Part shown: positions 5,423 to 64,000 of the stretch, one piece after another
How the letters are laid out: each line of letters begins with the position of its first letter
How positions within the stretch are numbered: the stretch's first letter is position 1
From: an uncultured Actinomycetota bacterium
GTDB lineage: Bacteria > Actinomycetota > Humimicrobiia > Humimicrobiales > Humimicrobiaceae
Assembly (NCBI GenBank): GCA_964578625.1
Contig: CAZODQ010000001.1
Location: forward strand, 23,401 to 87,400
Direction of reading: 5' to 3'
Length of the DNA: 64,000 nucleotides
Program-made: the position numbers and the translations under genes
The notes under the pieces: generated by a model
The model's input: the letters and a program-made list of their open reading frames with translations, nothing else
Databases searched by the model: none
What the model was told of the DNA's origin: nothing

Positions 5423-5457
5423 ATTTATATTCTGTCTTTTAGGACTTCTTTTTTTCT

Positions 5458-6270: not shown

Positions 6271-6279
6271 AATTATCCA

Positions 6280-7311: not shown

Positions 7312-7349
7312 ACCCGATCATTACTTTTAATATATTTCCTGCAGCCGGC

Positions 7350-24937: not shown

Positions 24938-24938
24938 C

Positions 24939-25418: not shown

Positions 25419-25488
25419 GATCTATCCTTCTCCTCTTATTTAAATACATTTGTCTTTGACATATTAATAAAAATTATATCTAAAATAA

Positions 25489-41008: not shown

Positions 41009-42025
41009 ATGAAACGTAGATTTAATTTTATTTTCAAAAGACCCCTTGAATTTTTAAAACGCAGGAAACGCATATTTAATTTCATTATCCAATTAGTAGT
41101 CAGCATTATACTGATAACTCTATTATTGCGCTGGGTAAATATTGGTGATATGATCTCCCTTTTTAAAAATATAAATATTTACTATTTCATTCTTCTTTTA
41201 GCCCTTGTTACCCTTGATAGAATCTTCATGGCATATAAATGGCACCTGTTGCTTAAGATAAAAGATACAAGTATTTCTTTAGTAAGTGCTATAAGGACCT
41301 ACTACATAGGAACATTCATAGGTTCTTTTCTACCCACTACAGTCGGCGGAGATATAGTTCGGGTCTTAAAATTGCATAGTGAAAAACGAAAAGGGACTGA
41401 CGTATTATCTTCTGTAATACTGGAAAGGATGTTAGGTTTTATAGCCTCCGCCGTTTTAGCTCCAATTGCAGCTTTGTTTTTAATATCTTTTTTTAAACTG
41501 AATATAGGGCGTTTTCTGGGAATAGCAGGAGTATTATTATTTCTCTTTATCATATTAATGTTAATTCCATTTAGCGAAGCTATATTCCGGAAAATAGATA
41601 AAAACGAGAAGTTATCCAGAAATTTTTTATTTAATAAATTTAGAAATCTTTATCTATCCTATGCGAAATATAAAAATAATAAAAATATACTCATCCTGTT
41701 TTTAGCTCTATCTATTTTGGAACAGTTGGTACCGGTAATCGGTAACTACCTGGCTAGCCGAGCATTAAACCTATCCATACCATTTGTATACTTTCTACTT
41801 ATAGTCCCCCTGGTGCAGCTTATCTCAAGAATTCCTATTTCCTTCGAGGGATTTGGAGTCAATGAAGGACTTCTGGTATACTTTTTCTCTTTGCTGGGCC
41901 TTTCCAAAACAGGTGCTTTTACTATAGGGCTGCTTGGCCATATTGCAATTATTATTGCTACCCTACCAGCTTTGTTCTTCTATTTTAAAGATATTAAAAC
42001 TTCTTTCGATCAGGTCAAGCATTAA
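41009..42025 (+). CDS. Flippase-like polytopic membrane protein (PF03706-like)
   Basis: 338 aa. GSFLPTTVGGDIVRVLK motif. Paralog of 34603..35643 and 50496..51581. Confidence 0.55.
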   Translation: MKRRFNFIFKRPLEFLKRRKRIFNFIIQLVVSIILITLLLRWVNIGDMISLFKNINIYYFILLLALVTLDRIFMAYKWHLLLKIKDTSISLVSAIRTYYIGTFIGSFLPTTVGGDIVRVLKLHSEKRKGTDVLSSVILERMLGFIASAVLAPIAALFLISFFKLNIGRFLGIAGVLLFLFIILMLIPFSEAIFRKIDKNEKLSRNFLFNKFRNLYLSYAKYKNNKNILILFLALSILEQLVPVIGNYLASRALNLSIPFVYFLLIVPLVQLISRIPISFEGFGVNEGLLVYFFSLLGLSKTGAFTIGLLGHIAIIIATLPALFFYFKDIKTSFDQVKH

Positions 42026-45687: not shown

Positions 45688-47553
45688 ATGTGTGGAATCT
45701 GCGGTTTTAACTGGGATGACGAAAAACTCATTCAAAAAATGGTCCAAAAAATTCACCACAGAGGACCGGATGCCAGCGGCACAAAGACTTTTCCTTCATT
45801 ATCCATGGGAAATGCTCGTTTGAGTATCATTGACCTTTCCGTTAAGGGAAACCAACCGATGTCCGATAGAAATGGAAAGCTATGGATTGTTTACAACGGT
45901 GAAGTATATAACTTCCCTGATATAAAAAAAGAACTAATTGCAAGAGGTTATAAGTTTAACAGCCATACCGATACTGAAGTAGTTTTAAAAAGCTATGAAG
46001 AATTTGGCCCTAAGTGCCTTGAAAAATTTAACGGTATGTTTGCCTTCGCCATATGGGACGAAGAAAAAAAGGAACTTTTTTTGGCCAGGGATAGAATTGG
46101 GATCAAACCTTTATATTATTACTTAAAAGATGGGAAATTAATCTTCGGCTCAGAAATAAAAAGCATACTTGAAGCAGATTGTGTAAAAAGGGAGGTGAAC
46201 CTCCAATCCATGTATTATTACCTGGGATATGAATTCGTTCCTGCTCCGGATACCATGTTCAAGAACATCTACAAACTCCGGCAGGGACATTACGCCATTT
46301 TTAAAAACGGTGACCTGCAAATCACAAAATACTGGGAATTAAAATTCAAACCAGAAATATCTAATGAAGAAGAAGCAGCGGACAGGATATTTGCTGCTCT
46401 GGAAAAATCCGTAAAAAGACGTTTGATCAGTGATGTTCCTTTGGGTGTTTTTTTATCCGGAGGGCTCGATTCCAGCACTGTTGTAGGTTTTGTTTCCAGA
46501 CTATATCCAAATAAGGTCCGGACCTTTTCCATAGGATATAAAGATAAAACTTTTTCAGAGCTTCCTTATGCTAAAATAGTCTCCGATTTTTTTCATACCG
46601 AACATAATGTATTGATGATCGATCCGGTCTCACCGGAAGATATCGAAAGAAGCCTTTATCATTTAGACGAACCTATGACCGACCTTTCCACTATTCCTTT
46701 TTACCTTATTAGCTGTAAAGCAAGAGAAAAAGTAAAAGTGTGTCTTAGCGGAGAAGGAGGAGACGAAATATTCCTGGGATATGACAGGTTTAAAGCAGCA
46801 AAAATAAACCGCTACTATAATATTTTTCCGTCTTTTATTAGAAAAAAGATCTTATCACCACTCGTCCTTAAGCTGCCTGACCAGCCCCAAAAAAAAGGTG
46901 CTATTAACATGCTTAAGCGCTATATGGAAGGAACACTTTATCCTGAAGAAGCAGGAGCTATGCGCTGGCAGTACTTCCTGAATCCAAAAATAGAACAAAA
47001 TATCCTTAATAAACATTCTCAAGGTAACATATCTTTTACCCCTTTTATTCCTATATATTATTTTTCGAAGATCTGCAATTCTGTAAATCAAATAGACAGG
47101 GATATTTTTGTGGATATAAAACTCACTATGGCCGATAGTGTCCTTATGAAAATTGACAAAATGAGTATGGCTACTTCTTTAGAGGTAAGAGTTCCCTTCC
47201 TGGATCATGAAGTCGTGGAACTCTGCGCTTCTATTCCGGCCGGCTTGAAACTTAATAAACTGACTACCAAATATATTTTCAGAAAAACTCTAAAAAAATA
47301 CAACTTCCTGCCGGAAAGCATCATCTACAGGGGTAAACAGGGTTACAGCCTGCCTGTTAAAAATTGGCTAAGAGAAGAATTAAAAGATTATATGACAGAC
47401 CTCTTTAGAAAATCGCCTATTATCAGAGAGAATTTCAATAGTCCATATTTATCACTTCTTATAAAGGAACATTCGGAATTAAAGCACAACTATAATCATA
47501 TTCTATGGGCCCTGGTAAATTTAAGTTTGTGGTATAAAAAATTTTTTCTTTAG
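45688..47553 (+). CDS. Asparagine synthase-like glutamine amidotransferase (AsnB/WbpS-like)
   Basis: 621 aa. N-terminal MCGICGF class-II GATase nucleophile and SGGLDSS PP-loop motif. Confidence 0.85.
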   Translation: MCGICGFNWDDEKLIQKMVQKIHHRGPDASGTKTFPSLSMGNARLSIIDLSVKGNQPMSDRNGKLWIVYNGEVYNFPDIKKELIARGYKFNSHTDTEVVLKSYEEFGPKCLEKFNGMFAFAIWDEEKKELFLARDRIGIKPLYYYLKDGKLIFGSEIKSILEADCVKREVNLQSMYYYLGYEFVPAPDTMFKNIYKLRQGHYAIFKNGDLQITKYWELKFKPEISNEEEAADRIFAALEKSVKRRLISDVPLGVFLSGGLDSSTVVGFVSRLYPNKVRTFSIGYKDKTFSELPYAKIVSDFFHTEHNVLMIDPVSPEDIERSLYHLDEPMTDLSTIPFYLISCKAREKVKVCLSGEGGDEIFLGYDRFKAAKINRYYNIFPSFIRKKILSPLVLKLPDQPQKKGAINMLKRYMEGTLYPEEAGAMRWQYFLNPKIEQNILNKHSQGNISFTPFIPIYYFSKICNSVNQIDRDIFVDIKLTMADSVLMKIDKMSMATSLEVRVPFLDHEVVELCASIPAGLKLNKLTTKYIFRKTLKKYNFLPESIIYRGKQGYSLPVKNWLREELKDYMTDLFRKSPIIRENFNSPYLSLLIKEHSELKHNYNHILWALVNLSLWYKKFFL

Positions 47554-48434: not shown

Positions 48435-49148
48435 TTAAGCTCCAGACAGGACTAAAAATCTTAAAATAAAGTAAATGCAAATCTCGATTACAGCCAGTGC
48501 CGTATAGGAAACTGCGATCCATATGATTTTTCTTTTTCTTCCGGCAATAACTGTTACTCTTAAAATCTCTATGATTATTATGCCCAGTATAAACAGATAT
48601 AAAAATGTGAAGTATTTATTTGAATACAACTTATAAAAGAATTCGGAAAATGGATGCTTACTATACCAGGGTTTCATTTCAAGCTGGCTGAAATAATCTT
48701 TTTCTATCCTGAATACATTATCCCCAGGATTCTCTAAAAAGCCACCTATATTTATTCTGGAAAGATCATATCCATCGTTGATTTTTAAATCAAATTCCAG
48801 GTAAGTGTAATCACTAGGAGTAAAACTAAAACCGTCCGAGTAGTCATTCTCGTTTAAAGTGGCAGAAAATTCTATTTTATCCCTCCCGACATAGATTACA
48901 TCATTTTCTTCCTCCAGTCCTCTTAAGCTGTATTTGGTTATCTTGCCATCGGTAGAAATTACACCATCAAACTTCGTTTCTTTAAGGTCTACACTCCACT
49001 CTACGAATATGCTGCCGTCCTCTTCCCATATAAAATAACCATAGCTGGCACCTGGAATATAAAAAATTCCTGTACATCCAGTAAGAAGCATTAAAATCAA
49101 TACCGCTACAAGAAAGAGTATAATAATTTTATTAGTTACTTTTATCAT
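48435..49148 (-). CDS. Hypothetical lipoprotein-like membrane protein (N-terminal signal/lipobox LLTGC, C-terminal TM helices)
   Basis: 237 aa. The order is hydrophobic N-terminus, soluble middle and two C-terminal hydrophobic segments. No recognisable family. Confidence 0.3.
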   Translation of the reverse strand: MIKVTNKIIILFLVAVLILMLLTGCTGIFYIPGASYGYFIWEEDGSIFVEWSVDLKETKFDGVISTDGKITKYSLRGLEEENDVIYVGRDKIEFSATLNENDYSDGFSFTPSDYTYLEFDLKINDGYDLSRINIGGFLENPGDNVFRIEKDYFSQLEMKPWYSKHPFSEFFYKLYSNKYFTFLYLFILGIIIIEILRVTVIAGRKRKIIWIAVSYTALAVIEICIYFILRFLVLSGA

Positions 49149-49155: not shown

Positions 49156-50472
49156 TTAAATCCCGTTATTACCTGATTTATTTTCTATCAGTTTCTTATT
49201 GTCTTTATGGATAAGATAAATCATCCATAACGATACCCCCGTAAAAACACTTCTGAATATATTTACGAATTTGGCAGAATCGTAAAAACGCTCGATAACA
49301 GGGATAATACCTGTCAGATATATAAAATATTTATAATCTATAGGCGCGAAAACAAATTTAGTCACAAGATCTCCCCAATATATCAATATCACCATAAGCA
49401 AAAAAAATTGGATCCAGTGATAGTATAAAAGCGATCTTCTCCTTATGAAAATAATTATAAGAAAAGGAACCGTCCACAATACATACTGGGGATGGAAGTA
49501 ACAGATGCCCACATAAGCCAGGAATACAATTGCCCCGTAATTTAAAAGTAAATCGAAACTTTTCCTTCTGATATGTAAAAAACTAAGGATTATAAATACA
49601 TACACTGCAATAAAAACAAAAATGCTGCTGTGAGACCCGCCTACGAGATCAAACTTCGTGGAAAGGAGATACTCGAAATGCTTGGTTTGAAGCAGTGGTA
49701 TTATAACACTCTTGCCAAAAATAAAGCGGCATAAAAGTTCCACTGCCGCCATACCGGAAAATCCTGCCAGAGGTAATAAAATATAATCCTTTTTGGTACG
49801 CGCCAGATATAACACCAGAAGAGGAAGTATCATTATGGGGAAAAACCTCAGAGCTATGGCAACTGCAAGTGCTAGAATTGCCCAATATTTCCTATCTTTT
49901 TTCGCCAGAAGCAGTGCAATAAGAGTAACAAACACCGCAATGATATCGTGCCTGGCAAAGATATATACCACAAATAATAATATGGGATTAAATATCCAGA
50001 ATTTAAAAACCCGCAGTTTATTTTTGGGCTCCCCATCGAAGGAAATCCTCAGGATCAAAAACATGCATACTATATCGAAAAGAAGATATAATATTTTAAA
50101 AAGGGTCAGCACGGTAAATACATTATAACTGCTGTTGAACTGTATCCAGGATATCCAGGTATCCTTCTCCAGCAGAATGGGAAATAACTTATTTATTGCC
50201 GGAAATATTGATTTTATTATAAACAGATACGTAGTATGAATCATATTGGTAATTATCTGCAGGTTATCTAATCCCAGATTTTTGGTAGAAATTGTTTCAG
50301 CAGCTCTCTGATAGGTTGAAAGCAGGTCTCTCTGAAAAAAAAACGGCAGAAAAATGAACCTTACCAGCAGGCCTATCATGAAGTATTTATAAAGGGTTCT
50401 CAGCGACTTTTTGTCCTCGAAAATCTCTTTAGTAACTATTAAACTTCCTATCTTATCGAAAAATTTTTTCAT
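49156..50472 (-). CDS. Polytopic membrane protein, possible GT-C-type glycosyltransferase (DUF2029/GT87-like)
   Basis: 438 aa, 10 or more hydrophobic segments, sits in the glycan locus. The family assignment is tentative. Confidence 0.3.
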   Translation of the reverse strand: MKKFFDKIGSLIVTKEIFEDKKSLRTLYKYFMIGLLVRFIFLPFFFQRDLLSTYQRAAETISTKNLGLDNLQIITNMIHTTYLFIIKSIFPAINKLFPILLEKDTWISWIQFNSSYNVFTVLTLFKILYLLFDIVCMFLILRISFDGEPKNKLRVFKFWIFNPILLFVVYIFARHDIIAVFVTLIALLLAKKDRKYWAILALAVAIALRFFPIMILPLLVLYLARTKKDYILLPLAGFSGMAAVELLCRFIFGKSVIIPLLQTKHFEYLLSTKFDLVGGSHSSIFVFIAVYVFIILSFLHIRRKSFDLLLNYGAIVFLAYVGICYFHPQYVLWTVPFLIIIFIRRRSLLYYHWIQFFLLMVILIYWGDLVTKFVFAPIDYKYFIYLTGIIPVIERFYDSAKFVNIFRSVFTGVSLWMIYLIHKDNKKLIENKSGNNGI

Positions 50473-50495: not shown

Positions 50496-51581
50496 TTAAT
50501 TTTTTAAAATTTGCGTTTTATTATTTCCTTTTACTTTATAAAACGGCATACTTAGTATAATTGTGGCTATAACTCCCAGAGTAACGATAAATGCCAGTGT
50601 AATTATATGATAACCAAATGCAACTGCCTCCCATGTAATTCCGGTTATTTTAAATCCCAGTATACCAAGCACCAGCAAAAAAGCTCCTTCATAAGTCCCG
50701 AAGCCCGCAAGAGCATGAGTGGGAAGCACGGCAGATATCTCCGCAGCCACTACAGCCAGAAATATTATCCAGAAATTCAGCTCTGCAAAAGTGTATCCCT
50801 CCGGCTTCAATATAGCATAAATCATCATATAATATGAACCGAATTTCAAAACTCTTATTGCAATCGAAGAAAGATATACTTTCCAGTATATTCTTCTTTT
50901 TTGTATTATTTCAATATTTTTATTTATATCAACCATTTTTTTATAGATGATCCGTACTACTCTGTTTTTACCGATCCTGTATCTGGATAGAATCTTATCT
51001 ATAATCATAAGTAAAAATCCGATTACTTTTGAAAAATAAAATAAAACCAGAAGAAGAACGATAAGAAGTACCGCAGCTATAAGGACAACCGCCAGGTAGG
51101 AACCCGAAAATTTATTGATTAGAACTACGATGACGGAAATTACGATAAGCGAAAAAACAATTACTAGGTCAAATATCAGCACTATCATCAAAGTGGATAC
51201 GCCGATTTCCAGGGGAAACTTGAACTTTCTCTGAAGCACATAAACATAGGATAATTCGCCGGTCCTCGCGGGAAGCACCATATTAAAAGCATTCCTGACA
51301 AGGACTACCAGAAACATATCCGCCATACTGACCCTCTTGGATCCAACCAGTATATTCTTACGGTATGTCCTGATAAAAATGCTTACTGACAATACGACCA
51401 GGGCTATTATAACAGAAAGTCTATCTACTTCCGTAATTGCATCCTTTATCTGCCCAATACTTATTTTACCCAGAAGATAATAAACCAGAAATGCCCCAAA
51501 ACCTACCACAATAACAATATTTATGATTCTTAGTATAAGTCCTCTTTTACTTGACTTCCTATTCTGGTTTTTTATATCCAT
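50496..51581 (-). CDS. Flippase-like polytopic membrane protein (PF03706-like)
   Basis: 361 aa. NMVLPARTGELSYVYVLQ motif region. Third paralog. Confidence 0.5.
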   Translation of the reverse strand: MDIKNQNRKSSKRGLILRIINIVIVVGFGAFLVYYLLGKISIGQIKDAITEVDRLSVIIALVVLSVSIFIRTYRKNILVGSKRVSMADMFLVVLVRNAFNMVLPARTGELSYVYVLQRKFKFPLEIGVSTLMIVLIFDLVIVFSLIVISVIVVLINKFSGSYLAVVLIAAVLLIVLLLVLFYFSKVIGFLLMIIDKILSRYRIGKNRVVRIIYKKMVDINKNIEIIQKRRIYWKVYLSSIAIRVLKFGSYYMMIYAILKPEGYTFAELNFWIIFLAVVAAEISAVLPTHALAGFGTYEGAFLLVLGILGFKITGITWEAVAFGYHIITLAFIVTLGVIATIILSMPFYKVKGNNKTQILKN

Positions 51582-51637: not shown

Positions 51638-54145
51638 TTATCTACTTTTCAAGTAGTTAGATATAAATCTTGAAGTCTGCCTTGGACCACTTCTGAAGAA
51701 GTGATAAAAAAATCTCTTTATGAGATAAGAGCTGCCTTTCCCTGACGATTTGATTTTTTTAGCTGATAAGTCACTATTTCCATTGCTGTTTATACTATCA
51801 GATTTCCTATCTTTAAGGGCACTTGATACCGGATCCCGGCAAAAGTCTATAATGGGTCGGCATATCTTTTCCCAGTTATAACCTTCTGCCAATTTCTCTA
51901 TATTTTCTACGCATCGATTATAAAATTGTTTGTCATCAGCAAGCTTTATAACAGCATTAACAATTCCCTGGACATCACCATCTCCTGCAGTTATACCAAG
52001 ACCTTTTCTCTCAACCAGATCGCTCAGGTAATCACCTCTGGTTGAAATTACCGGCAAACCTGCCCAGAGGTAATCTAGTATTCTGGTTCTAAATGAAAAT
52101 CTGGTCTCAATATGTTCCGGATGAGTTATTATTCCTGCATCCGATTCCAGCAGATAATTCTGCCTGTCATTATAGTCAACCCACCCAAAGTTAAAAAAGA
52201 CATTTTTATCATACACATTTAATTTCCTGGCAAGACTAACCGTATCATTTACCAGCCGGAGTTCCTTGACTTCAGGGTTGGGATGCCTTATACCCATAAA
52301 GAACAATTTTATGTCATCTCTCATCTTTGCTATTTCTGCCATTGCTTTGATCAAGGTCAGTGGATCGAACCAGTTATAGATCCCTCCTCCCCAGATAATC
52401 ACAAAATCGTCCTTGTTTATACCACTTATCTTGCCTTTTAATACACCGGTGGTATGAACAGGCTTTGCAGATGGAAGACCGAACGGAACTATATCTATCA
52501 TTTTTTTCAGAGTAGGATCTTGATTGTAAGAGTATGGATTAACCCGGTTTAACGCCGCCAGCATGCCAAGCCAGAAATCCCTCTGCCTCTCTGAAGCACA
52601 TATAAAGAAATCTCCGTAGTAAAACTGCTCATTGAAAATATTATGTATAGATTTATGTATTTCCAGCCTCTTTTTTATAGGTTCGGAGCTGTATTCGGCA
52701 AGTGTCGCCAGATTATAAGGGTCATAAATGTCTATGATCAAATACTTTCCCGAATCTTTTATACTTCTGTATTTAGCAAAAGCCATCCCCCCGCTTAGTA
52801 TAATATCAGCCTGCTCTATAATCCCTTTTAACTTGCTGTCATCTGTAAACTGAATTATTTTAAAATTTTGTTCAGGCAGATCGACTTTATTTGGAACAGC
52901 CAGTATGACTTCCATGTACTGGGATAGAACCTGAGCAAAATTCCAAACCCTTATCGCTGGGCCTGCCATTTCCCCGGAGACGACTTCGCTTGATATTATA
53001 AGAAGTTTTCTTTTTATCTCTTTTTCAAAAACTCCATAAATACCCAGGGATTTTAAAAGATTTATTTGTTTTTCCTGGTAATCTTTGTCAGGTGAAACTG
53101 CCAGGAATTGCCCTTTGAAATAAGAGAAGATTGCTTTATCATCCCTTTTTCTTTTTTCCTGTATATTTTTCCTCTTCCTGGTAAGCTCCGGCAATTCATC
53201 CAGGAAATTCTTTACAGCCATAAGTGAACTTAATGGTTCATACTTTATTGCCCGGGGAGTAATCTTTCTCTGGTCACCAGCGCTGATACTCAGATCATAA
53301 TAGTTTTTATAATCAAATTTAAAATCCGTAAAGATACGGTTAAAAACATTTGCCAGAGAACCAGAAAGCACTCTGGCAAGATTGCTATCATCATAATTTT
53401 TAAAAACAGAATAAAGAGAATTTCTTTCCTTTAAAAATCTAAGCCTATCTTCACTAAAAGCTCTTGAAGTCCCGTGATGATGATGGTAGACAATAGATTG
53501 CGGGGCAAATACAACCTTGTAACCCAGCACCCAGAGCCTCCAGCCCAGGTCAACATCTTCATAATAAGCAAAAAAATCCTGGTCAAAACCACCGGCATCA
53601 AGAAAAACTTTCCTGTTTATCATCATTGACCCGCCGTTTACAAAGGGAAGAAACATGTATCTGTCATGGTTATCATTTTCTACCGGTGTGCCGTAATCAA
53701 TCTGGAAACCTTTTCCCTCAAAATTTATCATACCGCCTATAAAATCTATTTTCTTTCCATCTATAGAAAGAACTTTTGAACCTGAAGCTACAATCTCTTT
53801 ATCTTTATAAATAGGTCTTAAGAGTTCAATCAGCCAGTTTTTATCAACCCTGGTGTCATTATTTAAAAAAGCTATATATTCACCTTCAGCGGCTTTTGCA
53901 GCCTGATTATTTGCATAAGCAAAACCTATATTCCTGCTGTTTTCAATTATCTTCACATTGGGATAATTCTGCTTTATTAAAACCAGGGATCTGTCAGTTG
54001 AACCATTATCCACTACTATGACTTCCAGTTTATCCTGAGGGTAGTTCAAATCTTTTAAGCTATTAAGACACTCTTTTAAATATTTTTCTCCGTTAAGATT
54101 AACAATCAATACTGAAGCCTTGGGGAAAGTAAGAATATCTTTCAT
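51638..54145 (-). CDS. Dual-domain glycosyltransferase: N-terminal GT2 and C-terminal GT-B (WGGG-type GT4-like)
   Basis: 835 aa. GT2: VLIVNLNGEKYL...VIVVDNGSTDRS...NIGFAYANN...YYEDVDLGWR. GT-B: VIIWGGGIYNWFDP...LPVISTRGD, paralogous to 15353..17665 and 18850..20319. Confidence 0.75.
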   Translation of the reverse strand: MKDILTFPKASVLIVNLNGEKYLKECLNSLKDLNYPQDKLEVIVVDNGSTDRSLVLIKQNYPNVKIIENSRNIGFAYANNQAAKAAEGEYIAFLNNDTRVDKNWLIELLRPIYKDKEIVASGSKVLSIDGKKIDFIGGMINFEGKGFQIDYGTPVENDNHDRYMFLPFVNGGSMMINRKVFLDAGGFDQDFFAYYEDVDLGWRLWVLGYKVVFAPQSIVYHHHHGTSRAFSEDRLRFLKERNSLYSVFKNYDDSNLARVLSGSLANVFNRIFTDFKFDYKNYYDLSISAGDQRKITPRAIKYEPLSSLMAVKNFLDELPELTRKRKNIQEKRKRDDKAIFSYFKGQFLAVSPDKDYQEKQINLLKSLGIYGVFEKEIKRKLLIISSEVVSGEMAGPAIRVWNFAQVLSQYMEVILAVPNKVDLPEQNFKIIQFTDDSKLKGIIEQADIILSGGMAFAKYRSIKDSGKYLIIDIYDPYNLATLAEYSSEPIKKRLEIHKSIHNIFNEQFYYGDFFICASERQRDFWLGMLAALNRVNPYSYNQDPTLKKMIDIVPFGLPSAKPVHTTGVLKGKISGINKDDFVIIWGGGIYNWFDPLTLIKAMAEIAKMRDDIKLFFMGIRHPNPEVKELRLVNDTVSLARKLNVYDKNVFFNFGWVDYNDRQNYLLESDAGIITHPEHIETRFSFRTRILDYLWAGLPVISTRGDYLSDLVERKGLGITAGDGDVQGIVNAVIKLADDKQFYNRCVENIEKLAEGYNWEKICRPIIDFCRDPVSSALKDRKSDSINSNGNSDLSAKKIKSSGKGSSYLIKRFFYHFFRSGPRQTSRFISNYLKSR

Positions 54146-54408: not shown

Positions 54409-56775
54409 ATGAAACAAATAAATATAGCTTTTATAACCGACAGAATGATAAAAGGCCATGGTGTTGACTTGGTAGTAGACAGGCTGGCAGACGGCCTGGC
54501 AAAAATAGGCTATGATTGTAAAGTTTACTGCAATTACTTCGATGAGACTTTTATAAACCGAAAGTCATACAATATAGAGAAATTCCACTACTTCAAACCT
54601 GATGTAAATCCGATAGTTTATGAAAGAAGAATTAGAAAATTAGTCCCTTACCTTAACAGCAAAGATATTGACCTTTTTATTATACAGTCATTTCCTTTCT
54701 ATAGTTTAATACCAAAATTAAGCAAACCGGTTTTAGTGGTTGACCATGGAATAATATCAGTCAGCGGACTGCCGTCAAAAAGAAGATTGAGATATAAATA
54801 TATGGAGATAAGCCAGAATATCTCATATTTTAAAAAAGCAAATAAAATTGTGACTGTCTCCAAATATTTATTAAATTGCCTGTCCAAAAATCTACAGGAA
54901 AAAGCTTCTTTTATCTACAATGGCTGTGACCATTACCAGCAAAAGACGATCGGCATGGAAAAGATCAAGAACTTCAGAAACGAGATAGGGGCAGGCCCGG
55001 AAGACATACTTCTCCTGTTTGTAGGAAGATTAAACCTTACCAATCAGCCTTATAAAGGATTGTCAGAACTTATTGGCATCTATCAAAACATTTCAAACAA
55101 ATATAAAAATGTAAAACTTCTTGCAGTGGGATATGGCACAAAAAATGATGAAGAACTGCTCAAGAACCAGGGAGTATTATCTATAAGCAACGCTCCGGAA
55201 GAACTTATGCCTTTAATATACAAATCCTGTGATATTTATACTACCTGTTCACACTGGGAAGGATTTGACCTGCCTATTGCAGAAGCTCACAGTTTCCAGA
55301 GACCGACCCTTTGCTATGATATCGGTGCCCACTCCGAAATCTCCAGAAACGGGAAGACAGGATTTGTAGTAAAGAACCGGAGTGAATTTACAAAGAAATT
55401 AGAGAACCTTATTAAAAATCCAAAGCTGAGAATAGAAATGGGAAAAAATGCCTTAGAATATGCCAAAAAATTTACCTGGGAGAATAGTGTAAAAAAATAT
55501 CACAGGATAATTAAAAAAATGCTTAATATAGCTGATTCGGATATCAAAGCCAAACCTTCTATCGACAGACACAAACCATTGTGGGGTAAAGATGTGTCAG
55601 TAATCATTGTCAACTACAACTCAAGTTATCCTGTACTGAAAGAATGCCTGGATTCTATTAAGAACCAATCATTCAAGAACATTGATATCATTATTTTTGA
55701 CAATAACTCCACCATTAATGTTCTTGAGGATATAAAAAGAGAATTTAAAGATATAAAGATAATATTTTCAAAAAAGAATCTCGGCCTGGGAGAAGGTATA
55801 AACCAGGCCCTAAAATATGCCGGCTCGGATCTGGTCTTAATATCAAATTTTGATCTGATATACAATCACGATGCTGTCGAACAAATGGTAAACTACATTA
55901 ACAGTCTTGAAAGCACATATTTAGGTGTAGCTCCAAAAATCAAACTTTACTACCAGAAAGATTTTTTAGAAAGTACGGGCATCTATATTGATGAAAATTT
56001 TTATATAGGCCATTACGGACTGGGGCAGTTAGATCTAAGCCAGTACAATAAAGAAGAAGATATCTTTGGAGTATCTTTTGTATCCTGCCTGATAAAACGC
56101 GATGCTTTTCTTGAAAATAAGGTTGGGCTAATCGACCCTACTTTATTCTTATTTTATGAAGACGTTGACTTCTGCTACAGGGCAAATCTTCATGGATACA
56201 GATTCCGGTCCTGTTCCCCTGCCATATGTTATCATAAATATGCATACAGCTTTAGAGATGAAGCTACTGCTTTTCAGACAAAATATTATTACCAGAAGCT
56301 GAATCTTTTAAAAACAGCCTATAAAAATGCGGAACTGCATAACCTTAATAGAATCATTTCAAATGAACTTAATATCCAGAAACAGAACTTAAAAGACATC
56401 AACCTTAAAGCAACTGCCAAGAAAATAATAAGTGAGTTTAAAAAAAGTATAAGATATCTTAAGAACAAAAGACAGTTTATCCAGTTCTCCAGACAGATAT
56501 TTGATACCGATATTATAAGATACAGCTGGGGAGAGGAAGTTTATTTCGATATCGTAAAAAATGAACCAGTTTATTCCATAGATAATCTTTATCAGTCTTA
56601 CCGCAGGTTATTTTCCCTTATGGGAAATGAAAGATATGGATTATATGTTAATTATCTGATGAACCTGAAAGACACTAAATTTAAAACTGAAACCAGCTTG
56701 TTTAAAAATATTCTTCATAGTAAATTAGAATATGAACCCACTTCAGTCCATAAATTTATAGATAAACTACAATGA
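54409..56775 (+). CDS. Dual-domain glycosyltransferase: N-terminal GT4 and C-terminal GT2
   Basis: 788 aa. GT4: CSHWEGFDLPIAEAHSFQRPTLCYDIG. GT2: VSVIIVNYNSSYPVL...IIIFDNNST...FYEDVDFCYR. Confidence 0.75.
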   Translation: MKQINIAFITDRMIKGHGVDLVVDRLADGLAKIGYDCKVYCNYFDETFINRKSYNIEKFHYFKPDVNPIVYERRIRKLVPYLNSKDIDLFIIQSFPFYSLIPKLSKPVLVVDHGIISVSGLPSKRRLRYKYMEISQNISYFKKANKIVTVSKYLLNCLSKNLQEKASFIYNGCDHYQQKTIGMEKIKNFRNEIGAGPEDILLLFVGRLNLTNQPYKGLSELIGIYQNISNKYKNVKLLAVGYGTKNDEELLKNQGVLSISNAPEELMPLIYKSCDIYTTCSHWEGFDLPIAEAHSFQRPTLCYDIGAHSEISRNGKTGFVVKNRSEFTKKLENLIKNPKLRIEMGKNALEYAKKFTWENSVKKYHRIIKKMLNIADSDIKAKPSIDRHKPLWGKDVSVIIVNYNSSYPVLKECLDSIKNQSFKNIDIIIFDNNSTINVLEDIKREFKDIKIIFSKKNLGLGEGINQALKYAGSDLVLISNFDLIYNHDAVEQMVNYINSLESTYLGVAPKIKLYYQKDFLESTGIYIDENFYIGHYGLGQLDLSQYNKEEDIFGVSFVSCLIKRDAFLENKVGLIDPTLFLFYEDVDFCYRANLHGYRFRSCSPAICYHKYAYSFRDEATAFQTKYYYQKLNLLKTAYKNAELHNLNRIISNELNIQKQNLKDINLKATAKKIISEFKKSIRYLKNKRQFIQFSRQIFDTDIIRYSWGEEVYFDIVKNEPVYSIDNLYQSYRRLFSLMGNERYGLYVNYLMNLKDTKFKTETSLFKNILHSKLEYEPTSVHKFIDKLQ

Positions 56776-57946: not shown

Positions 57947-59332
57947 TTATCTGCCGGTATCATTTTTTATTTCTATTCTTGAATTTAAATCTGCAACACC
58001 TTCAGCTATTTTTCTGCTTATAACATTTATTGTAAACATATCATTTACCCAATCACAGTAGGTCATATTGTCCTTATATGCTACGGCAGATGAAATAAGA
58101 TACTCTCCGCCTATCAAAGGAATCTTCTGGTTAAAAATTACCTTTATCAAATCGTCCTTTTTAAATGTCCCTGTTTTTATATTATTCAATCTTGTATTGG
58201 TCCCGTATACAACATTGCCCCTGAAGTCTTTAATCCTTATCCCAAACACAGGTTCCTCAATTTTTTTCTTGAACAGCACCTCATAAACTATTTTAACATT
58301 ATCTCCATACTCACAAAAATCAATCTCTCTGTCCTTGCTGTCCAGGAGCTTTATATTTTGAATCTCGGCATCCCCGCTTCCAAATCTTTTAATAGTTTCT
58401 CCGCTTACACTCGAGTCAGCCAGTTTTATTATTTCTTCTCCATTGACTATTTTTCTGTTGCGTTCTATCACAGTCTTGAATATTTTCTTTCTTTCTATGC
58501 TCTGCTGTTCAATAATTCTCTTTTTCTCCAGCTCTTCAATATAAGCTCTATATTTCACTACTATATTTAATGGCTTGCCCATATCTACTATCTTTCCATC
58601 CTTTAAAAATATTACCTTGTTGCATAAATCAGAAATAGTATCCAGGTCATGCGAAACTATTATTATCGTCTTACCCTTTTTCATGAAATTATAAATGACT
58701 TTATAGCACTTTGCCTGGAAAGCCTGGTCTCCCACAGCCAAGACTTCATCAACAAGCAGAATATCCGGATTGACATTAATTGCAACAGAAAATCCCAGTC
58801 TCATATACATACCTGATGAATAATTCTTGACCGGCGTATCAATAAATTTGGCAAGTTCCGAAAATTCTATGATCTTGTCCATTTTTTTATCGACTTCTTT
58901 CTTCCTCATACCAAGAATCGCTGCATTTATATAAACATTTTCTCTTCCAGTAAGATCAGGGTGAAATCCTGCTCCCAATTCCAGAAGTGCCGACATCGAT
59001 CCATTCACAATAACTTCCCCGCTGGTAGGCTGAAGAATATTTGCCATTAGTTTAAGCAGGGTGCTCTTTCCCGAACCGTTCGGTCCGATTATACCCAGCG
59101 TCTGCCCGTGGTCTACTGTGAAAGATACATCATCCAGAGCCAGGAACTCTTCAAACGTTGTACGATTTCTCCTGAGAATGGTATTTTTCAGGCTTGGGAT
59201 CTTTTCATGGTAAATCCTGTACCTTTTAAATACAGACCTTATATCAACAGCCGCATCATTTCCAGGATCCTTAATCCCTTTCCCCATGTACTTATTCTCT
59301 TTTTTGTTCATTTGATTAGATTTCCTCTGCAA
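57947..59332 (-). CDS. wzt: Polysaccharide ABC exporter ATP-binding protein Wzt/TagH-like with C-terminal (Wzt_C-like) extension
   Basis: 461 aa. Walker A GPNGSGKST, ABC signature YSSGM, Walker B ILLVDEVLAVGD. About 190 additional C-terminal residues follow the NBD, as in Wzt proteins that bind capped glycan termini. Confidence 0.85.
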   Translation of the reverse strand: MQRKSNQMNKKENKYMGKGIKDPGNDAAVDIRSVFKRYRIYHEKIPSLKNTILRRNRTTFEEFLALDDVSFTVDHGQTLGIIGPNGSGKSTLLKLMANILQPTSGEVIVNGSMSALLELGAGFHPDLTGRENVYINAAILGMRKKEVDKKMDKIIEFSELAKFIDTPVKNYSSGMYMRLGFSVAINVNPDILLVDEVLAVGDQAFQAKCYKVIYNFMKKGKTIIIVSHDLDTISDLCNKVIFLKDGKIVDMGKPLNIVVKYRAYIEELEKKRIIEQQSIERKKIFKTVIERNRKIVNGEEIIKLADSSVSGETIKRFGSGDAEIQNIKLLDSKDREIDFCEYGDNVKIVYEVLFKKKIEEPVFGIRIKDFRGNVVYGTNTRLNNIKTGTFKKDDLIKVIFNQKIPLIGGEYLISSAVAYKDNMTYCDWVNDMFTINVISRKIAEGVADLNSRIEIKNDTGR

Positions 59333-60149
59333 ATCTGGGTTCTAATTTTTTAAAAACAAAATAACCTACAAAAAATATAAGCAGTGTTATCCCAAGAGCA
59401 ATCAAAGTCTCCATAGTGCTGGGGAAACCTGCACCTTCCGGATATTTTATATAATAGAAAATATTCCTGTAGTAAGCAGCATACACTGTCATCGGATTTA
59501 GTTTTATTATAAATTGAAATCTTTCCGGGACCATCTGCAAAGGATAGATAATAGGGGTACCGAAAAACCATACCATCATGATGATAGTTATCAGATGCTG
59601 AAGATCCCTGAAAAACACATTTAAGGCCGATACCAGCAGAGTCATGCCCACGACCAGGAAGAACTGTATAAATATCAATATGGGTAATACATAAAGAAAT
59701 AAATAGAATCTATATCCAAGAACAGCAAGCGCAATAAATAAGGCAACAAGCTCCAAAAGAAAGTTAAAAAGGTTGGCAAACACAATAGACAGAGGAAGTA
59801 TTTCTCTGGGAAAATAAATTTTATTCACAAGATTGCTATTGGAAATAATACTTCCCGTACTATAGTTGACTGAATTAGAAAGAAAATTAAATGGAAGCAA
59901 GGCACAGATTAAAAAAATTGCAAATTCTTCTATTCCTGCCCGCAGCACAATTGAAAAAACGAAAGTATATACCAGCATGGTCAGTATAGGATTTAAAAGG
60001 GACCAGAAAAAGCCTAAAACCGACCCCCTATATTTAACCTTAAGCTCTTTCTTTGTAAGACTAAAAAGAAGCTCTCTGTATGAAAAAAGTATTTTAAAAT
60101 TTTTTATCATCTTTATTCTTAAGCTCCAACCAGATTTTACAGAATCCAA
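59316..60149 (-). CDS. wzm: ABC-2 type polysaccharide exporter permease (Wzm/KpsM/TagG-like)
   Basis: 277 aa. KELKVKYRGSVLGFFWSLLNP ABC-2 signature and 6 TM segments. Overlaps wzt by 17 nt. Confidence 0.85.
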   Translation of the reverse strand: MDSVKSGWSLRIKMIKNFKILFSYRELLFSLTKKELKVKYRGSVLGFFWSLLNPILTMLVYTFVFSIVLRAGIEEFAIFLICALLPFNFLSNSVNYSTGSIISNSNLVNKIYFPREILPLSIVFANLFNFLLELVALFIALAVLGYRFYLFLYVLPILIFIQFFLVVGMTLLVSALNVFFRDLQHLITIIMMVWFFGTPIIYPLQMVPERFQFIIKLNPMTVYAAYYRNIFYYIKYPEGAGFPSTMETLIALGITLLIFFVGYFVFKKLEPRFAEEI

Positions 60150-60178
60150 TCTAATACTAAAATATTTATTTTATAAAC

Positions 60179-61345
60179 CTAATCAATAGCTTCAATCTGA
60201 CTTTTAAGTTTAGTAAATATATTTTTTATATCATAGTTCTTCACAACATACTCCCTGCCTCTCTCCCCCATTTTACCAGCTTCACTTTTATTTTTTAAAA
60301 GATAATCAATACCTTTCTTAAAACTATTATAATCATGATAAAGCAGCCCTCCACCACTTCTTCTTATATGTTCGACTATAACCTCCGAACCGTTACTTGC
60401 CAGTATAGAAGTCTTTTGAGCCATTGCTTCAAGAGTGACTATACTAAAACTTTCATTGGGGGACGGCATAATAAAGATATCAGCTCCACTCATTAATCTA
60501 AATTTTTCTCCCTCAGATACATTGCCCTTAAATATAATATCCCTGCTTGATAGGATTTTAATCTTATTATCTCCAGTCAATATTAAATGTAAATTAGATG
60601 GGTTATCCTTTTTATATTTTAAAAAGTAATCGACTAGTTGGTTGCAACCTTTATTTATATCAATTCTCCCACAATATAATATATAGGGAAAATTTAAATT
60701 GGCAGGAGGAAACTTTTTTGTTTCTACTCCCATGCCAATTACACAGCCTGGTAATTCTCCCCATAACGACTTGCCAAAATGATACTCACTCTCTGTATTC
60801 CATAGAATAATTCTCGTTCTCTTAGCCATATATTTATAAACGGAAAGATAAGCCGATGGCTCATCATGCAAGGTCGGTACAAATAAAATCTTATGCCGTG
60901 GAACATTAAACATCCCAAAATAAGTTGTGGGATAAAGATAGGTCAGAAATATCACAGCTTTGTATTGCCAGCTTTTTTCAGATAAAAAATTCATTAAATC
61001 ATTTGAGTATGGCCCCTGTTTATATATGAATTCTTCCTGAAGAGGAGCAGGCCATTCAATGAGTCTCTTCGTATTTCCAAATTCTTCTAAAAGCCGTCTA
61101 TGAATCTCTTCCCAATAGTCTGCTCTACCCTGTGAAACCTTAAATCTTTTAATACATATCCCATGTATGATTTCATCACCTTCATCCAGCACATTTTTCC
61201 ATTTTTCAAAATCTACTGCAGTTGTGGTTAGAATGTGAACCTCATAACTTTTTTTTAACAAATTCCCGTAATGCCATGCTTCAGCTTCAGAACCACCAAC
61301 AATTTTTTCATGACATCTTTGAACAACAATAGCCAATTTTCTCAT
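60179..61345 (-). CDS. GT-B glycosyltransferase (GT4-like)
   Basis: 388 aa. C-terminal ...FIMPSPNESFSIVTLEAMAQKTSILAS E-x7-E-like motif. Confidence 0.6.
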   Translation of the reverse strand: MRKLAIVVQRCHEKIVGGSEAEAWHYGNLLKKSYEVHILTTTAVDFEKWKNVLDEGDEIIHGICIKRFKVSQGRADYWEEIHRRLLEEFGNTKRLIEWPAPLQEEFIYKQGPYSNDLMNFLSEKSWQYKAVIFLTYLYPTTYFGMFNVPRHKILFVPTLHDEPSAYLSVYKYMAKRTRIILWNTESEYHFGKSLWGELPGCVIGMGVETKKFPPANLNFPYILYCGRIDINKGCNQLVDYFLKYKKDNPSNLHLILTGDNKIKILSSRDIIFKGNVSEGEKFRLMSGADIFIMPSPNESFSIVTLEAMAQKTSILASNGSEVIVEHIRRSGGGLLYHDYNSFKKGIDYLLKNKSEAGKMGERGREYVVKNYDIKNIFTKLKSQIEAID

Positions 61346-62436
61346 AGGTACTTACCAATAATATTTAAAAATTTCTGTTTAATTATTTTATTTGTAAAAT
61401 TATTTTTATATCTTCTCCAACCTGCTTCTCCCAGGAAAAAATAATCATTTCCACTGGTAACGATTTTATCAATTGTAGCGGTAATTAGGTTAATGTCTAA
61501 ATCCTCCCATACTATTCCACCATCACCAACCGTATCGGCAACTGCGGTTGAACCATAAGTTACAACAGGAATTTTCATACTCATAGCTTCAACCAAAGGC
61601 AAACAAAAACCTTCGTGATAGCTTGTCAGGACAAAAACTCTGGAAACAAGAAAATACGATTTCAATTGCTCATCACTGACTTTACCGGTAAATATGACAG
61701 AATTGTCGAGGTTCATATATCTTACTTTATAATCCAAATAATCAATATAAGCAGATAGCCATTGATGTCTATTACCCACTATGATCAATCTACTTTCTTT
61801 ATTAAAATGCTCGTTATATAAGGCAAAAGCGTCAATAAGTTCTGAAAATCCTTTATTAGGAACTACTCTACCCACAGATAAAATATTCACTTTATTATCA
61901 TTATATTTGTCTATTATGTTAAAATCAGGTTTAAGGTTTTTTAATTCCCCTATAGTATTAAACGGGGGGATAATAAAACACTTCGAGGCTTTGGCACCCT
62001 CGGAGATCATGCCTAACATATTAAACCTGGAATCACTTAAATAAATTTCTAAATCCAAATTAGCAATAATATTTAACTGTTCTATACCACCTCTACAAGT
62101 CTCGGCATGATTCGAGCTAAATCCATAGAAATAATAAGGTGGAGTTATATTATGGTATTTTATAATTTTTTTACAATCCAGCCTGGTCAATATATCCATA
62201 CCTTTAAACCACCCGGCAGACAGGTGGTATATTATTACATCTTCATTATGTTTAATAAAATTACCAATACAATCAATACTTTTTACTATCTTATACTTAT
62301 CCGAAATAAAGATGTTTTCTGCAAAAATGTTTACGTTAAGATTCTGCTTACTGAGGACGTCAAACATGCCTAGAACGTCGTTGCTTACTGCATCACCATT
62401 AGAAACCACTGAAGTACAAATAGCTATATTCTTCAT
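61342..62436 (-). CDS. GT4 (Glycos_transf_1) glycosyltransferase
   Basis: 364 aa. VFVLTSYHEGFCLPLVEAMSMKIPVV. Confidence 0.8.
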   Translation of the reverse strand: MKNIAICTSVVSNGDAVSNDVLGMFDVLSKQNLNVNIFAENIFISDKYKIVKSIDCIGNFIKHNEDVIIYHLSAGWFKGMDILTRLDCKKIIKYHNITPPYYFYGFSSNHAETCRGGIEQLNIIANLDLEIYLSDSRFNMLGMISEGAKASKCFIIPPFNTIGELKNLKPDFNIIDKYNDNKVNILSVGRVVPNKGFSELIDAFALYNEHFNKESRLIIVGNRHQWLSAYIDYLDYKVRYMNLDNSVIFTGKVSDEQLKSYFLVSRVFVLTSYHEGFCLPLVEAMSMKIPVVTYGSTAVADTVGDGGIVWEDLDINLITATIDKIVTSGNDYFFLGEAGWRRYKNNFTNKIIKQKFLNIIGKYL

Positions 62437-63650
62437 ATTTTATAACCTACTACTGCATAATCTTGAGGTCCGTAAAAATAATCATTGAACCGCTTTGAAG
62501 TCTCCGAATCATCTTCCTTTAATTTAAGATCATCATTATAGGGATTGATATCAATAACCTCTATATTAATAAAACCTCGGGATTCTAAAGCCAATTTAAC
62601 CAACAAGCTTGGCAATGGCTTATTATGGGTAGGATCCAGATAAAAACTGTAACTGCCTACCAAAACATTGCCAGGATTTGGAGTTTCCAATATTACCAGT
62701 CCACCTGGTTTCAATACACGCAATATTTCGTCCAGCAGTTTAATTAAAAAATCAAATCCATAATGCTCAATAAGGTGAAATCCGGTAACAGCGCCAAGAC
62801 TGTCATTGGAAACAGATTTCATAAAAGAAAACACTTCGGCTTCTATAACATCAAGTCCTCTTTCCTTGCAAATCTCCACCATGACTTTATTTGGATCCAA
62901 TCCTCTAGCATGTAAATTTGCTTCCTTTAACAATTCCAACCACTCGCCACGGCCGCAGCCTATATCCAGTACGGAAGAGTCTTTCGTCCCGACATTTGCC
63001 TTTTTTATAATAGGAATATAAACATTTAGGCGCTCTTTTATTTCCTTACGGCTGCCTCTTAAATTATCTTCCAAAAAAACATAAAGAGAATCCAGGCTGT
63101 GATCGATCTCTCTAGTTAAATTTTGCAATCTAGCTTTACCCATTTTTCTGGTATCCTTTCCTACACTTCCAGAAAGATTTTTTATTCCTTTCTCCAGTTG
63201 GATTAAATTATTCTTCAGATAATTTATTATATTATTAAGTTTATTAATCTCGATGTCCTTCTCTTCCAGTTTATTTTTTAGTTCCATAATTTTAGTATCA
63301 GACTGGGTCTTGTATTCAGCAAATCTGAACTTAAGTTTGTTGCAATCATCGATAATACTTCTCAGGGCATCAAGTATAGACAAGTTAAACTGCCTCTGGT
63401 TTATAGTGATTATCTTTAAAACCTTAATAAGAATCCTGCCAGCCCACCTGTAAATTATCCTTTTTGGAATAGACAAACTACTAAAAGAAGGTACATCTAA
63501 ACCAATTCTTGCATTTCTCTCTGCCCAATCCAAATAATCATAGATACTATTCTTTTCTTTATCCCTGCAATAAACCTCTGTTTCTTTTCTAATTTTTTTC
63601 TTTAAATCTTTAATATATTTTTTTGTATCATCCGAGCCAACCATAATCAC
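62433..63650 (-). CDS. Class-I SAM-dependent methyltransferase with N-terminal coiled-coil (candidate chain-terminating capping enzyme, WbdD-analogous)
   Basis: 405 aa. VLDIGCGRGEW motif I, DVIEAEV post-I acidic residue, LRVLKPGGLVILETPNP motif III. The N-terminal ~200 aa are heptad-like and charged (KIMELKNKLEEKDIEINKLNNIINYLKNNLIQLEKGIKNL). Confidence 0.75.
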   Translation of the reverse strand: MIMVGSDDTKKYIKDLKKKIRKETEVYCRDKEKNSIYDYLDWAERNARIGLDVPSFSSLSIPKRIIYRWAGRILIKVLKIITINQRQFNLSILDALRSIIDDCNKLKFRFAEYKTQSDTKIMELKNKLEEKDIEINKLNNIINYLKNNLIQLEKGIKNLSGSVGKDTRKMGKARLQNLTREIDHSLDSLYVFLEDNLRGSRKEIKERLNVYIPIIKKANVGTKDSSVLDIGCGRGEWLELLKEANLHARGLDPNKVMVEICKERGLDVIEAEVFSFMKSVSNDSLGAVTGFHLIEHYGFDFLIKLLDEILRVLKPGGLVILETPNPGNVLVGSYSFYLDPTHNKPLPSLLVKLALESRGFINIEVIDINPYNDDLKLKEDDSETSKRFNDYFYGPQDYAVVGYKI

Positions 63651-63657
63651 TCATCCC

Positions 63658-64000
63658 TCAATAAGCTCCCCTTCCAAACAGTATTACAGGAATAGTCTTT
63701 AAAATTATTTTAATATCCAGCTCAATAGACCAGTTTTGTATATAATATAGATCCAGCCTTGCCATCTCTTCAAAAGATAGTTCACTTCTTCCACTTATCT
63801 GCCACAATCCTGTACAACCCTGCTTAACCCCCATCCTTCTCAGCTCCCATTCGTCATATTTTTCAACTTCAACCGGAAGCGGCGGCCGAGGCCCTACCAG
63901 GCTTAGTTCCCCTTTTAAAACGTTTATAATCTGAGGTAATTCATCAATCGAAAATTTTCTTAATATTTTTCCAACCCGAGTAACTCTCGGATCATTTCTA
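63658..64000 (-). CDS. Polyprenyl-phosphate sugar phosphotransferase (bacterial sugar transferase family, WbaP/PglC-like); C-terminal part only, gene runs off the window
   Basis: Manual translation of the minus strand gives ...KFSIDELPQIINVLKGELSLVGPRPPLP...GLWQISGRSELSFEEMARLDLYYIQNWSIELDIKIILKTIP...*. This carries the hallmark DELPQ...LVGPRP motif of PF02397. Stop at 63658-63660. Absent from the ORF track because the N-terminus lies beyond 64000. Confidence 0.85.
   Translation of the reverse strand, partial: RNDPRVTRVGKILRKFSIDELPQIINVLKGELSLVGPRPPLPVEVEKYDEWELRRMGVKQGCTGLWQISGRSELSFEEMARLDLYYIQNWSIELDIKIILKTIPVILFGRGAY

Follow-up and report, generated by a model that had tools for sequence, protein, structure and literature searches.

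In the 64,000-nucleotide stretch of contig CAZODQ010000001.1 that we analysed (hereafter the window), from an uncultured Actinomycetota bacterium, the last 6 kb encode six co-directional genes on the minus strand, in the order polyprenyl-phosphate glycosylphosphotransferase (PGT, cut by the window edge), methyltransferase (MTase), two GT4 glycosyltransferases, Wzm and Wzt. Neighbouring genes either overlap or are separated by 7–30 bp, and for this reason we regard them as one operon. An earlier note on this DNA had grouped the PGT, the MTase and the Wzm/Wzt pair together; every open reading frame (ORF) was found at its assigned position, on the minus strand, and the grouping was borne out as a single operon, with both GT4 genes sitting between Wzm and the MTase. 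No terminators above expectation were detected in a promoter/terminator scan of the operon.

Gene content of the operon

The six genes are:

63658..64000, minus strand: 3' end of a PGT gene of the WbaP/EpsZ type; 113 C-terminal residues at 63661..63999, the gene running off the window edge
62433..63650, minus strand: ORF of an anchor–coiled-coil–methyltransferase, a putative chain terminator, with matches to Pfam Methyltransf_23/11/25
61342..62436, minus strand: GT4 glycosyltransferase of 364 residues (Pfam Glycos_transf_1, E 5.6e-27), overlapping the MTase stop by 4 bp
60179..61345, minus strand: GT4 glycosyltransferase of 388 residues (Pfam Glycos_transf_1, E 4.2e-22), its position kept in two related contigs, L081 and L082
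59316..60149, minus strand: Wzm, ABC-2 type permease of a glycan exporter, 277 residues (Pfam ABC2_membrane, E 8.9e-18)
57947..59311, minus strand: Wzt, ATPase subunit with a C-terminal carbohydrate-binding domain (CBD) (Pfam ABC_tran and Wzt_C; longest ORF 57947..59332)

The PGT gene ends at a TGA stop codon (63658–63660), and the encoded fragment covers the last ~115 profile positions of the NCBIfam models TIGR03025 (E 2e-56) and WbaP TIGR03022 (E 2.5e-51); its score lies under the full-length cutoff solely because the gene is truncated at the window edge. The MTase has 405 residues from GTG 63650 and 403 from ATG 63644; a GAGGGA ribosome-binding site lies 9 nt ahead of the ATG, a database protein of 403 residues (P0001) is 100% identical, and ATG 63644 is probably the start. 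Wzm matches the NCBIfam Wzm/RfbD and KpsM models below cutoff, and its gene adjoins that of Wzt, as in an ABC-2 (ATP-binding cassette) glycan exporter, with the stop codon (TAA, 59316–59318) 4–28 bp ahead of candidate Wzt starts. Three such starts were considered (ATG 59311, 454 residues; ATG 59287, 446 residues; TTG 59332, 461 residues); Wzt homologues have 446–454 residues, the 446-residue version is identical to database protein P0121, and the true start is likely to be one of the two ATG codons.

Domains of Wzt and of the methyltransferase

Within these two proteins we distinguish the following parts:

57986..58390, minus strand: Wzt_C carbohydrate-binding domain of Wzt (aa 315–449 in the numbering of the 461-residue ORF), preceded by a helical linker from the nucleotide-binding domain (NBD)
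63336..63548, minus strand: conserved N-terminal "anchor" block of the MTase (aa ~35–105), recognised from a hidden Markov model (HMM) and alignments of homologues
63165..63470, minus strand: single long predicted alpha-helix of the MTase (aa 61–162), 102 residues unbroken, with AlphaFold2 (AF2) confidence (predicted local distance difference test, pLDDT) of ~80–89
63105..63164, minus strand: flexible Gly/Ser/Lys-rich linker of the MTase (aa 163–182), with pLDDT <50 at aa 164–182
62436..63101, minus strand: class I S-adenosylmethionine (SAM)-dependent methyltransferase catalytic domain (aa 184–405), matching PDB entry 3DLI at E 1e-32

The earlier note had counted about 190 extra residues after the NBD of Wzt and proposed that they fold as a beta-sandwich CBD. 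We count ~185, and the HMM search of this tail gave a full-length profile match to Wzt_C (PF14524; E 7.7e-33, 113.9 bits against a cutoff of 30.4, profile positions 3–143 of 143), behind an ABC_tran domain at aa 66–197 (E 9.5e-23). The AF2 model of Wzt, whose mean pLDDT of 70 leaves the relative domain orientation unreliable, has a helical linker between the NBD and an all-beta tail of ~9 strands (tail pLDDT ~70–88). When this model was compared with the PDB by Foldseek, the top matches were full-length Aquifex aeolicus Wzt chains (8DL0, 8DKU and 7K2T), in alignments of ~420 columns that span NBD and CBD (E ~1e-37). By sequence, the best PDB match is again A. aeolicus Wzt (E 8e-70, NBD), and the tail alone matches three solved Wzt CBDs (6O14/8DKY, 5HNO and 2R5O). 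Judged from sequence and model, which agree, the tail is a true Wzt CBD.

The CBD of A. aeolicus Wzt binds a 3-O-methyl-mannose/rhamnose cap, Trp362 stacking on the cap methyl and Leu300, Thr346 and Ala348 forming the methyl pocket (PMC9445017). We matched these residues to the window protein by manual count on the sequence alignment (chain index being the numbering of that paper + 1): Trp362 aligns with the W of a YCDW motif, a residue invariant among 40 homologues, Ala348 is also Ala in Wzt here and Thr346 is replaced by Ser. On this alignment, the pocket appears compatible with a methyl cap as the predicted ligand.

In the AF2 model of the MTase (mean pLDDT 82), a short, charged helix (aa 6–29) and a second helix (aa 36–47) precede the long helix, which is joined to a catalytic domain of pLDDT >90 by the linker, a segment weakly conserved and with many indels in the alignment. 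This is the arrangement that the earlier note had read from the letters, coiled coil then MTase, reversed with respect to WbdD, the methyltransferase terminator of E. coli O8/Klebsiella O5 and the kinase-methyltransferase terminator of E. coli O9a/Klebsiella O3; the structure prediction of 62433..63650 likewise gave a long N-terminal helix followed by a C-terminal MTase. Its claim that the N-terminal half is a long coiled coil held only in part, as the long helix does have coiled-coil character but over no more than ~75–100 residues. Using a home-made heptad score with shuffle controls, in place of Marcoil or DeepCoil, we found aa 92–119 and 120–161 above the 99th percentile of shuffles, with one register over aa 113–161. 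Score and model place the coiled-coil spacer roughly at aa ~85–160, and a profile search with the spacer gave weak matches to myosin and keratin coiled coils.

The catalytic domain opens with a conserved cap (LDSLYVFLEDNLRGSRxEIKxRL) and has the Rossmann-type fold and Gly-rich SAM-binding loop (GCGRGEWL) of class I SAM-dependent methyltransferases, with Pfam domains of this class at aa 222–330. WbdD was not among the phmmer matches of the MTase at E≤0.01, nor among the best 60 of its 84 family-profile matches at E≤1. By sequence comparison, the MTase domain resembles WbdD no more than it does other class I methyltransferases, and the protein would consequently be an analogue and not an orthologue. 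It departs from the WbdD family in domain order, in specific homology and in the kinase domain, none being detected by Pfam or NCBIfam and the AF2 model containing no unassigned folded domain. With the coiled-coil terminators as a class it shares, in architecture, an extended coiled coil in the MTase protein and a CBD-bearing Wzt encoded alongside.

The most conserved N-terminal feature of the MTase, which the earlier note does not contain, is not a coiled coil: it is the anchor block, with the motifs AExNAxIG ... KRxxYRxxxRxLxKxL ... ITxNQRxFNLS. Across 42 sequences with identities as low as 39%, residues A43, G50, Q85 and N89 do not vary; in the larger set, 93 of 94 homologues have Q85/N89, whose spacing from the N-terminus is fairly constant (~90–109 aa in most). 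In the 80 genomic loci described below, an HMM of the block matched the MTase ORF in 43, from many phyla and always near aa 50–125, and matched zero non-MTase ORFs. Residues 64–81 (RIIYRWAGRILIKVLKII) are strongly amphipathic and basic (hydrophobic moment 0.68, net charge +5); their hydrophobicity is below the level of a transmembrane helix, which makes them a candidate in-plane membrane or protein-docking helix. A phmmer search of 1.84 billion representatives with aa 1–183 returned 25 matches, among which the only alternative fusion was P0252 (373 aa), with an N-terminal FkbM/RfbT-type MTase (PF05050, aa 28–195), the anchor block at aa 248–323 and then a short coiled coil; a follow-up search with the tail of P0252 gave no matches. 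Compared with the window MTase, P0252 thus has the opposite domain order and an MTase of another family with the same anchor block, a domain order that suggests, by sequence, a portable module.

Synteny, proposed mechanism and alternatives

Homologues of the MTase are numerous: >7,100 of 8,000 scored candidates lie at E≤1e-5, most of them with 400–420 aa and full query coverage, and some carry IMG labels such as "O-antigen chain-terminating methyltransferase" or "SAM-dependent methyltransferase/coiled-coil protein SlyX". Species-representative genomes contain 561 relatives. The "distinct terminator design" of the earlier note is therefore real as regards the reversed order but, given these numbers, not rare. 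Loci were counted in the best 80 of the 561 relatives, the window's own genome lying outside those 80; they come from Cyanobacteria, Acidobacteriota, Nitrospirota, Desulfobacterota, Ignavibacteria, Chlorobi, Bacteroidota, Verrucomicrobiota, Firmicutes, Proteobacteria and one Thermoplasmata archaeon. In most of them the gene order is Wzm, Wzt with CBD, MTase and GT4, and in 41 of the 74 usable loci the gene directly downstream of the MTase encodes a homologue of the window GT4s.

An ORF-level analysis covered 65 loci that we call informative, those in which the sequence upstream of the MTase extends for 4 kb or more. Wzt is encoded in 49 of these (75%); 44 of the 49 Wzt proteins have at least 380 aa, 42 match the tail of the window Wzt, and for 27 the gene adjoins that of the MTase on its upstream side, in the same orientation. 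When the loci were screened for a specific and conserved partner gene, GT4, Wzt and Wzm were the only widespread ones; the remaining enriched clusters were confined to particular lineages. A Wzt neighbour accompanies 36 of 41 anchor-positive MTases versus 13 of 24 anchor-negative ones (Fisher p 0.006, uncorrected for phylogeny). At the sequence level, this cross-phylum synteny strongly supports a functional link between the MTase and the CBD of Wzt.

Among 94 homologues, 84 to 294 aa separate the anchor from the first invariant catalytic residue, and in the genome loci the anchor–catalytic gap ranges from 43 to 262 aa. Alignments of 42 and of 94 homologues show poor conservation and many indels in the segment after the anchor block; nevertheless, a significant heptad signal is present in the spacer of 94 of 94 homologues, with a mean coverage of 58% versus 0.6% in the catalytic domain, and the proline/glycine content of the spacer in this set is about one third of that of the catalytic domain. 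Conserved ends joined by a drifting, length-variable heptad helix would be the sequence pattern expected of a spacer or ruler.

We propose, with a probability of about 0.6, that the operon provides the core steps (initiation, capping and export) of a cap-gated glycan pathway dependent on an ABC transporter, in which the MTase is an analogue of WbdD with reversed polarity. What we observed in support of this is which domains are present, how they are arranged and that the synteny is conserved. The PGT, assigned to the WbaP type by sequence, would start the chain on polyprenyl phosphate, its presumed substrate, and the two GT4s together with two dual-module glycosyltransferases encoded nearby (788 aa, GT4-GT2, and 835 aa, GT2-GT4) would, judging from their domains, build and polymerise the chain in the cytoplasm. 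The anchor block (aa ~35–105) would hold the MTase at the membrane or at an assembly complex, while the ~100-residue helix and the ~20-residue linker would keep the catalytic domain away from it. We infer that only chains that reach the MTase would be methylated, at their non-reducing end, and that the helix would in this way control their length. The methyl cap would end elongation and, bound by the CBD of Wzt (a domain predicted from sequence and model, with methyl as its presumed ligand), would license export by Wzm/Wzt. The exported glycan is, in relatives, probably passed to its acceptor by a Wzy_C-family protein whose gene lies just upstream of that for the PGT.

Several observations weigh against this proposal. 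About one quarter of the informative loci have no Wzt within 10 kb, and in five loci (L005, L014, L035, L037 and L043) the coiled-coil MTase is encoded beside a short, CBD-less Wzt of 243–280 aa; the MTase family can therefore do without coupling to a CBD, and in these lineages a terminator-like enzyme is apparently uncoupled from cap recognition by the transporter. The pocket residue Leu300 of Aquifex Wzt corresponds to Arg in Wzt here. The coiled coil is short (~11–15 nm for ~75–100 residues), the flexible linker of ~20 residues between helix and enzyme would blur a ruler, and multiples of 7 or 11 are not enriched among the spacer length differences of the 94 homologues, in which the spacer includes the flexible linker. 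Finally, the searchable literature yielded no biochemical or genetic data on any member with the order anchor, coiled coil and MTase.

Among the alternatives, the one that survives best, although we consider it rather unlikely, keeps the MTase as the enzyme that caps the chain for the CBD of Wzt and reduces the helix to oligomerisation or tethering, chain length resulting from polymerase:terminator kinetics or stoichiometry. The linker that parts helix from enzyme (pLDDT <50) and the missing heptad quantisation of the spacer somewhat favour this explanation, and the helix is much shorter than the ~20 nm coiled coil of WbdD, yet coiled-coil character is retained in all 94 homologues despite sequence drift and a 3.5-fold range of length between conserved ends. 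Stoichiometry also affects chain length in WbdD systems, although the characterised coiled-coil terminators tested so far are all rulers (PMC11231755).

It is improbable, in our view, that the MTase only decorates, acting on internal sugars or on a sugar-nucleotide or lipid-linked intermediate, and that the epitope of the CBD is another terminal residue added by an adjacent GT4, comparable to the Kdo caps added by WbbB-type glycosyltransferases. Two GT4s of unassigned specificity do lie between the MTase and Wzm, CBDs read several cap chemistries including Kdo (PMC9445017, PMC11231755), and one residue of the Aquifex methyl pocket is changed in Wzt here; the methyl-stacking Trp is nevertheless invariant in this Wzt clade, and the adjacency of MTase and CBD-bearing Wzt is kept across phyla while the glycosyltransferase complement varies. 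PA5457 and PA5459, methyltransferases of the Pseudomonas aeruginosa common polysaccharide antigen (CPA) locus, are unlike WbdD in behaviour, but they have neither anchor nor coiled-coil stalk, which a plain decorating MTase does not need (PMC3560663). That the MTase has a protein, lipid or small-molecule substrate and lies in the operon by chance is hardly credible: its Pfam and NCBIfam matches are indeed generic class I models (MetW, UbiE/UbiG-like), all under family cutoffs, and the closest solved structure, 3DLI, is without assigned function, but the gene translationally overlaps its neighbours in a glycan operon and 49 of the 65 informative loci, drawn from over 10 phyla, show synteny with Wzm/Wzt and GT4.

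Beyond the cap-gated pathway itself, we suggest tentatively, and at well under even odds, that the anchor block is an undescribed portable docking module that tethers glycan-capping MTases to a membrane-bound polymerase or exporter and that, with the variable coiled coil, it defines "N-anchored" molecular-ruler terminators, an independent parallel of WbdD in more than 10 bacterial phyla and at least one archaeon. Since the block is shared with the unrelated FkbM/RfbT-type MTase of P0252, the anchor and not the enzyme would be the unit of evolution. No description of the motifs AExNAxIG and QRxFN was found in the searchable literature.

For setting the length of a template-free polymer, the textbook solution is cap-gated export in which the terminator includes a molecular ruler, and to our knowledge its experimental prototypes are confined to a few Enterobacteriaceae. 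Pathways of this type are well known, and the domain order of the MTase is a common, so far uncharacterised variant: the reversed arrangement (anchor, coiled coil, MTase) is very common and tightly linked to CBD-bearing Wzt in cyanobacteria, Acidobacteriota, Desulfobacterota, Firmicutes, uncultured Actinomycetota-like lineages and others. For this window the result is mainly a solid functional annotation and not a surprise, the architecture being widespread and not unique; its most novel element is the conserved anchor block. If the proposal is right, the ruler principle would have arisen more than once, the anchor block and a GCGRGEWL-type MTase beside Wzt_C would be a signature predicting methyl-capped, length-controlled glycans in uncultured organisms, and a compact terminator of 400 aa would be available for glyco-engineering.

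Wider locus and comparison with known systems

In the related contig L081, whose MTase is ~65% identical, the order is Wzy_C protein, PGT, MTase, GT4, GT4, Wzm and Wzt (with Wzt_C), and this operon is followed by the same convergent GT4, the 788-aa GT4-GT2 protein and the GT2-GT4 protein as in the window; L082 shares gene order with the window operon. A full PGT of 649 aa (CoA_binding_3 and Bac_transf) is encoded directly upstream of the orthologous MTase in both contigs (L081:5737-9968 and L082:1682-3631), preceded in L081 by a 754-aa protein with a Wzy_C domain (ligase or O-oligosaccharyltransferase-like). By analogy, a Wzy_C protein and the full PGT probably lie just past the right edge of the window. 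The two dual-module glycosyltransferases of the window (835 aa, GT2-GT4, at 51638–54145, and 788 aa, GT4-GT2, at 54409–56775) are divergently transcribed, adjoin the export operon, are kept in L081 and are likely to be the polymerase.

The glycan region extends over ~54 kb (9775–64000), adjoined by a tryptophan biosynthesis operon (2668–8852) with trpA, a PALP-family trpB-like gene, the genes of phosphoribosylanthranilate isomerase (PRAI) and indole-3-glycerol-phosphate synthase (IGPS), trpD and trpE. The window also encodes RmlD and several sugar-nucleotide enzymes. Three LPG_synthase_TM ("flippase-like") paralogues (34603–35643, 41009–42025 and 50496–51581), each beside GT2 or multi-transmembrane genes, may belong to polyprenyl-phosphate-sugar side-branch systems acting outside the cytoplasm, and a 629-aa GT-C membrane protein (29013–30902), matching TMEM260-like and PMT_2 protein O-mannosyltransferase models, hints at protein or extracytoplasmic glycosylation in the glycan region. 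Amid the glycosyltransferase genes lie those of a B12-binding radical SAM enzyme (33156–34553) and of a SPASM-domain radical SAM enzyme (36537–37535), which, together with an AsnB-like amidotransferase (45688–47553), suggest unusual sugar modification. For three ORFs (15353–17665, 770 aa; 48435–49148, 237 aa; 49156–50472, 438 aa) no Pfam match was obtained at E≤1e-3 to 1e-4; the 438-aa one appears to encode a multi-pass membrane protein, possibly a novel GT-C or polymerase-like protein. Two PD40 beta-propeller proteins with a DUF11/CARDB and GDSL-lipase protein (20499–27309), and a CARDB and polysaccharide deacetylase protein (27400–28992), are probable surface or secreted proteins that break up the glycosyltransferase region.

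Close homologues of the window proteins are labelled as metagenome-assembled genomes of "Actinomycetota bacterium", so that "O antigen" is possibly the wrong term for the product; by analogy, a cell-wall or S-layer-type glycan, as in the slg cluster of Geobacillus stearothermophilus NRS 2004/3a, is equally possible. That S-layer glycan cluster encodes WsaP, WsaE, Wzm/Wzt and WsaB, and can be likened to the Wzy_C–PGT–MTase–...–Wzm–Wzt arrangement of the relatives. Its MTase is the N-terminal domain of WsaE, a multifunctional rhamnosyltransferase, and we know of no separate anchor–coiled-coil MTase described there.

As in WbdD (E. coli O8/O9a, Klebsiella O5/O3), the window protein combines a class I MTase with a long coiled coil and a region close to the membrane or complex, with the catalytic module at one end of the helix and a conserved, presumed anchoring region at the other (PMC11231755, PMC3482155), and Wzm, a CBD-bearing Wzt and separate GT4-type polymerase candidates are encoded alongside. 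The order is opposite: WbdD runs MTase(-kinase), coiled coil and amphipathic helix, whereas the window MTase runs anchor, coiled coil and MTase, has no kinase and has a shorter helix (~100 aa) joined via a flexible linker. In all characterised terminators (WbdD of O8/O9a, WbbB of O12, ORF7 of O4 and ORF6 of O7) the terminating module precedes the coiled coil, on its N-terminal side (Kelly et al. 2024, PMC11231755). Klebsiella pneumoniae O12 WbbB, O7 ORF6 and O4 ORF7 share with the window the logic of terminator, coiled-coil ruler and CBD-bearing Wzt, and, as in Klebsiella O4, each activity of the window operon is on a separate polypeptide (PMC11231755). These three proteins differ from the window MTase in their N-terminal terminating module and central or C-terminal coiled coil and in their caps, which are Kdo or methyl-phosphate, and WbbB and ORF6 in addition carry polymerase glycosyltransferase modules.

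The CBD of the window Wzt belongs to the same Pfam family as that of A. aeolicus WzmWzt (PDB 7K2T, 8DKU, 6O14 and 8DKY), with ~32% overall identity between the two Wzt proteins, a longer NBD–CBD linker helix in the window and the Arg at pocket position Leu300; the Aquifex paper names no capping MTase for A. aeolicus (PMC9445017). The P. aeruginosa proteins PA5457 and PA5459 were considered as the same type of protein and rejected, since they lack such extra domains (PMC3560663). In the TET operon of Pseudomonas syringae, the order wzm, wzt, "wbdD" (a SAM MTase) and wbdA is that of most of the 80 loci, and the rough-lipopolysaccharide mutants listed include a transposon mutant of this MTase (PMC7820976); this MTase may be a genetically characterised member of the family.

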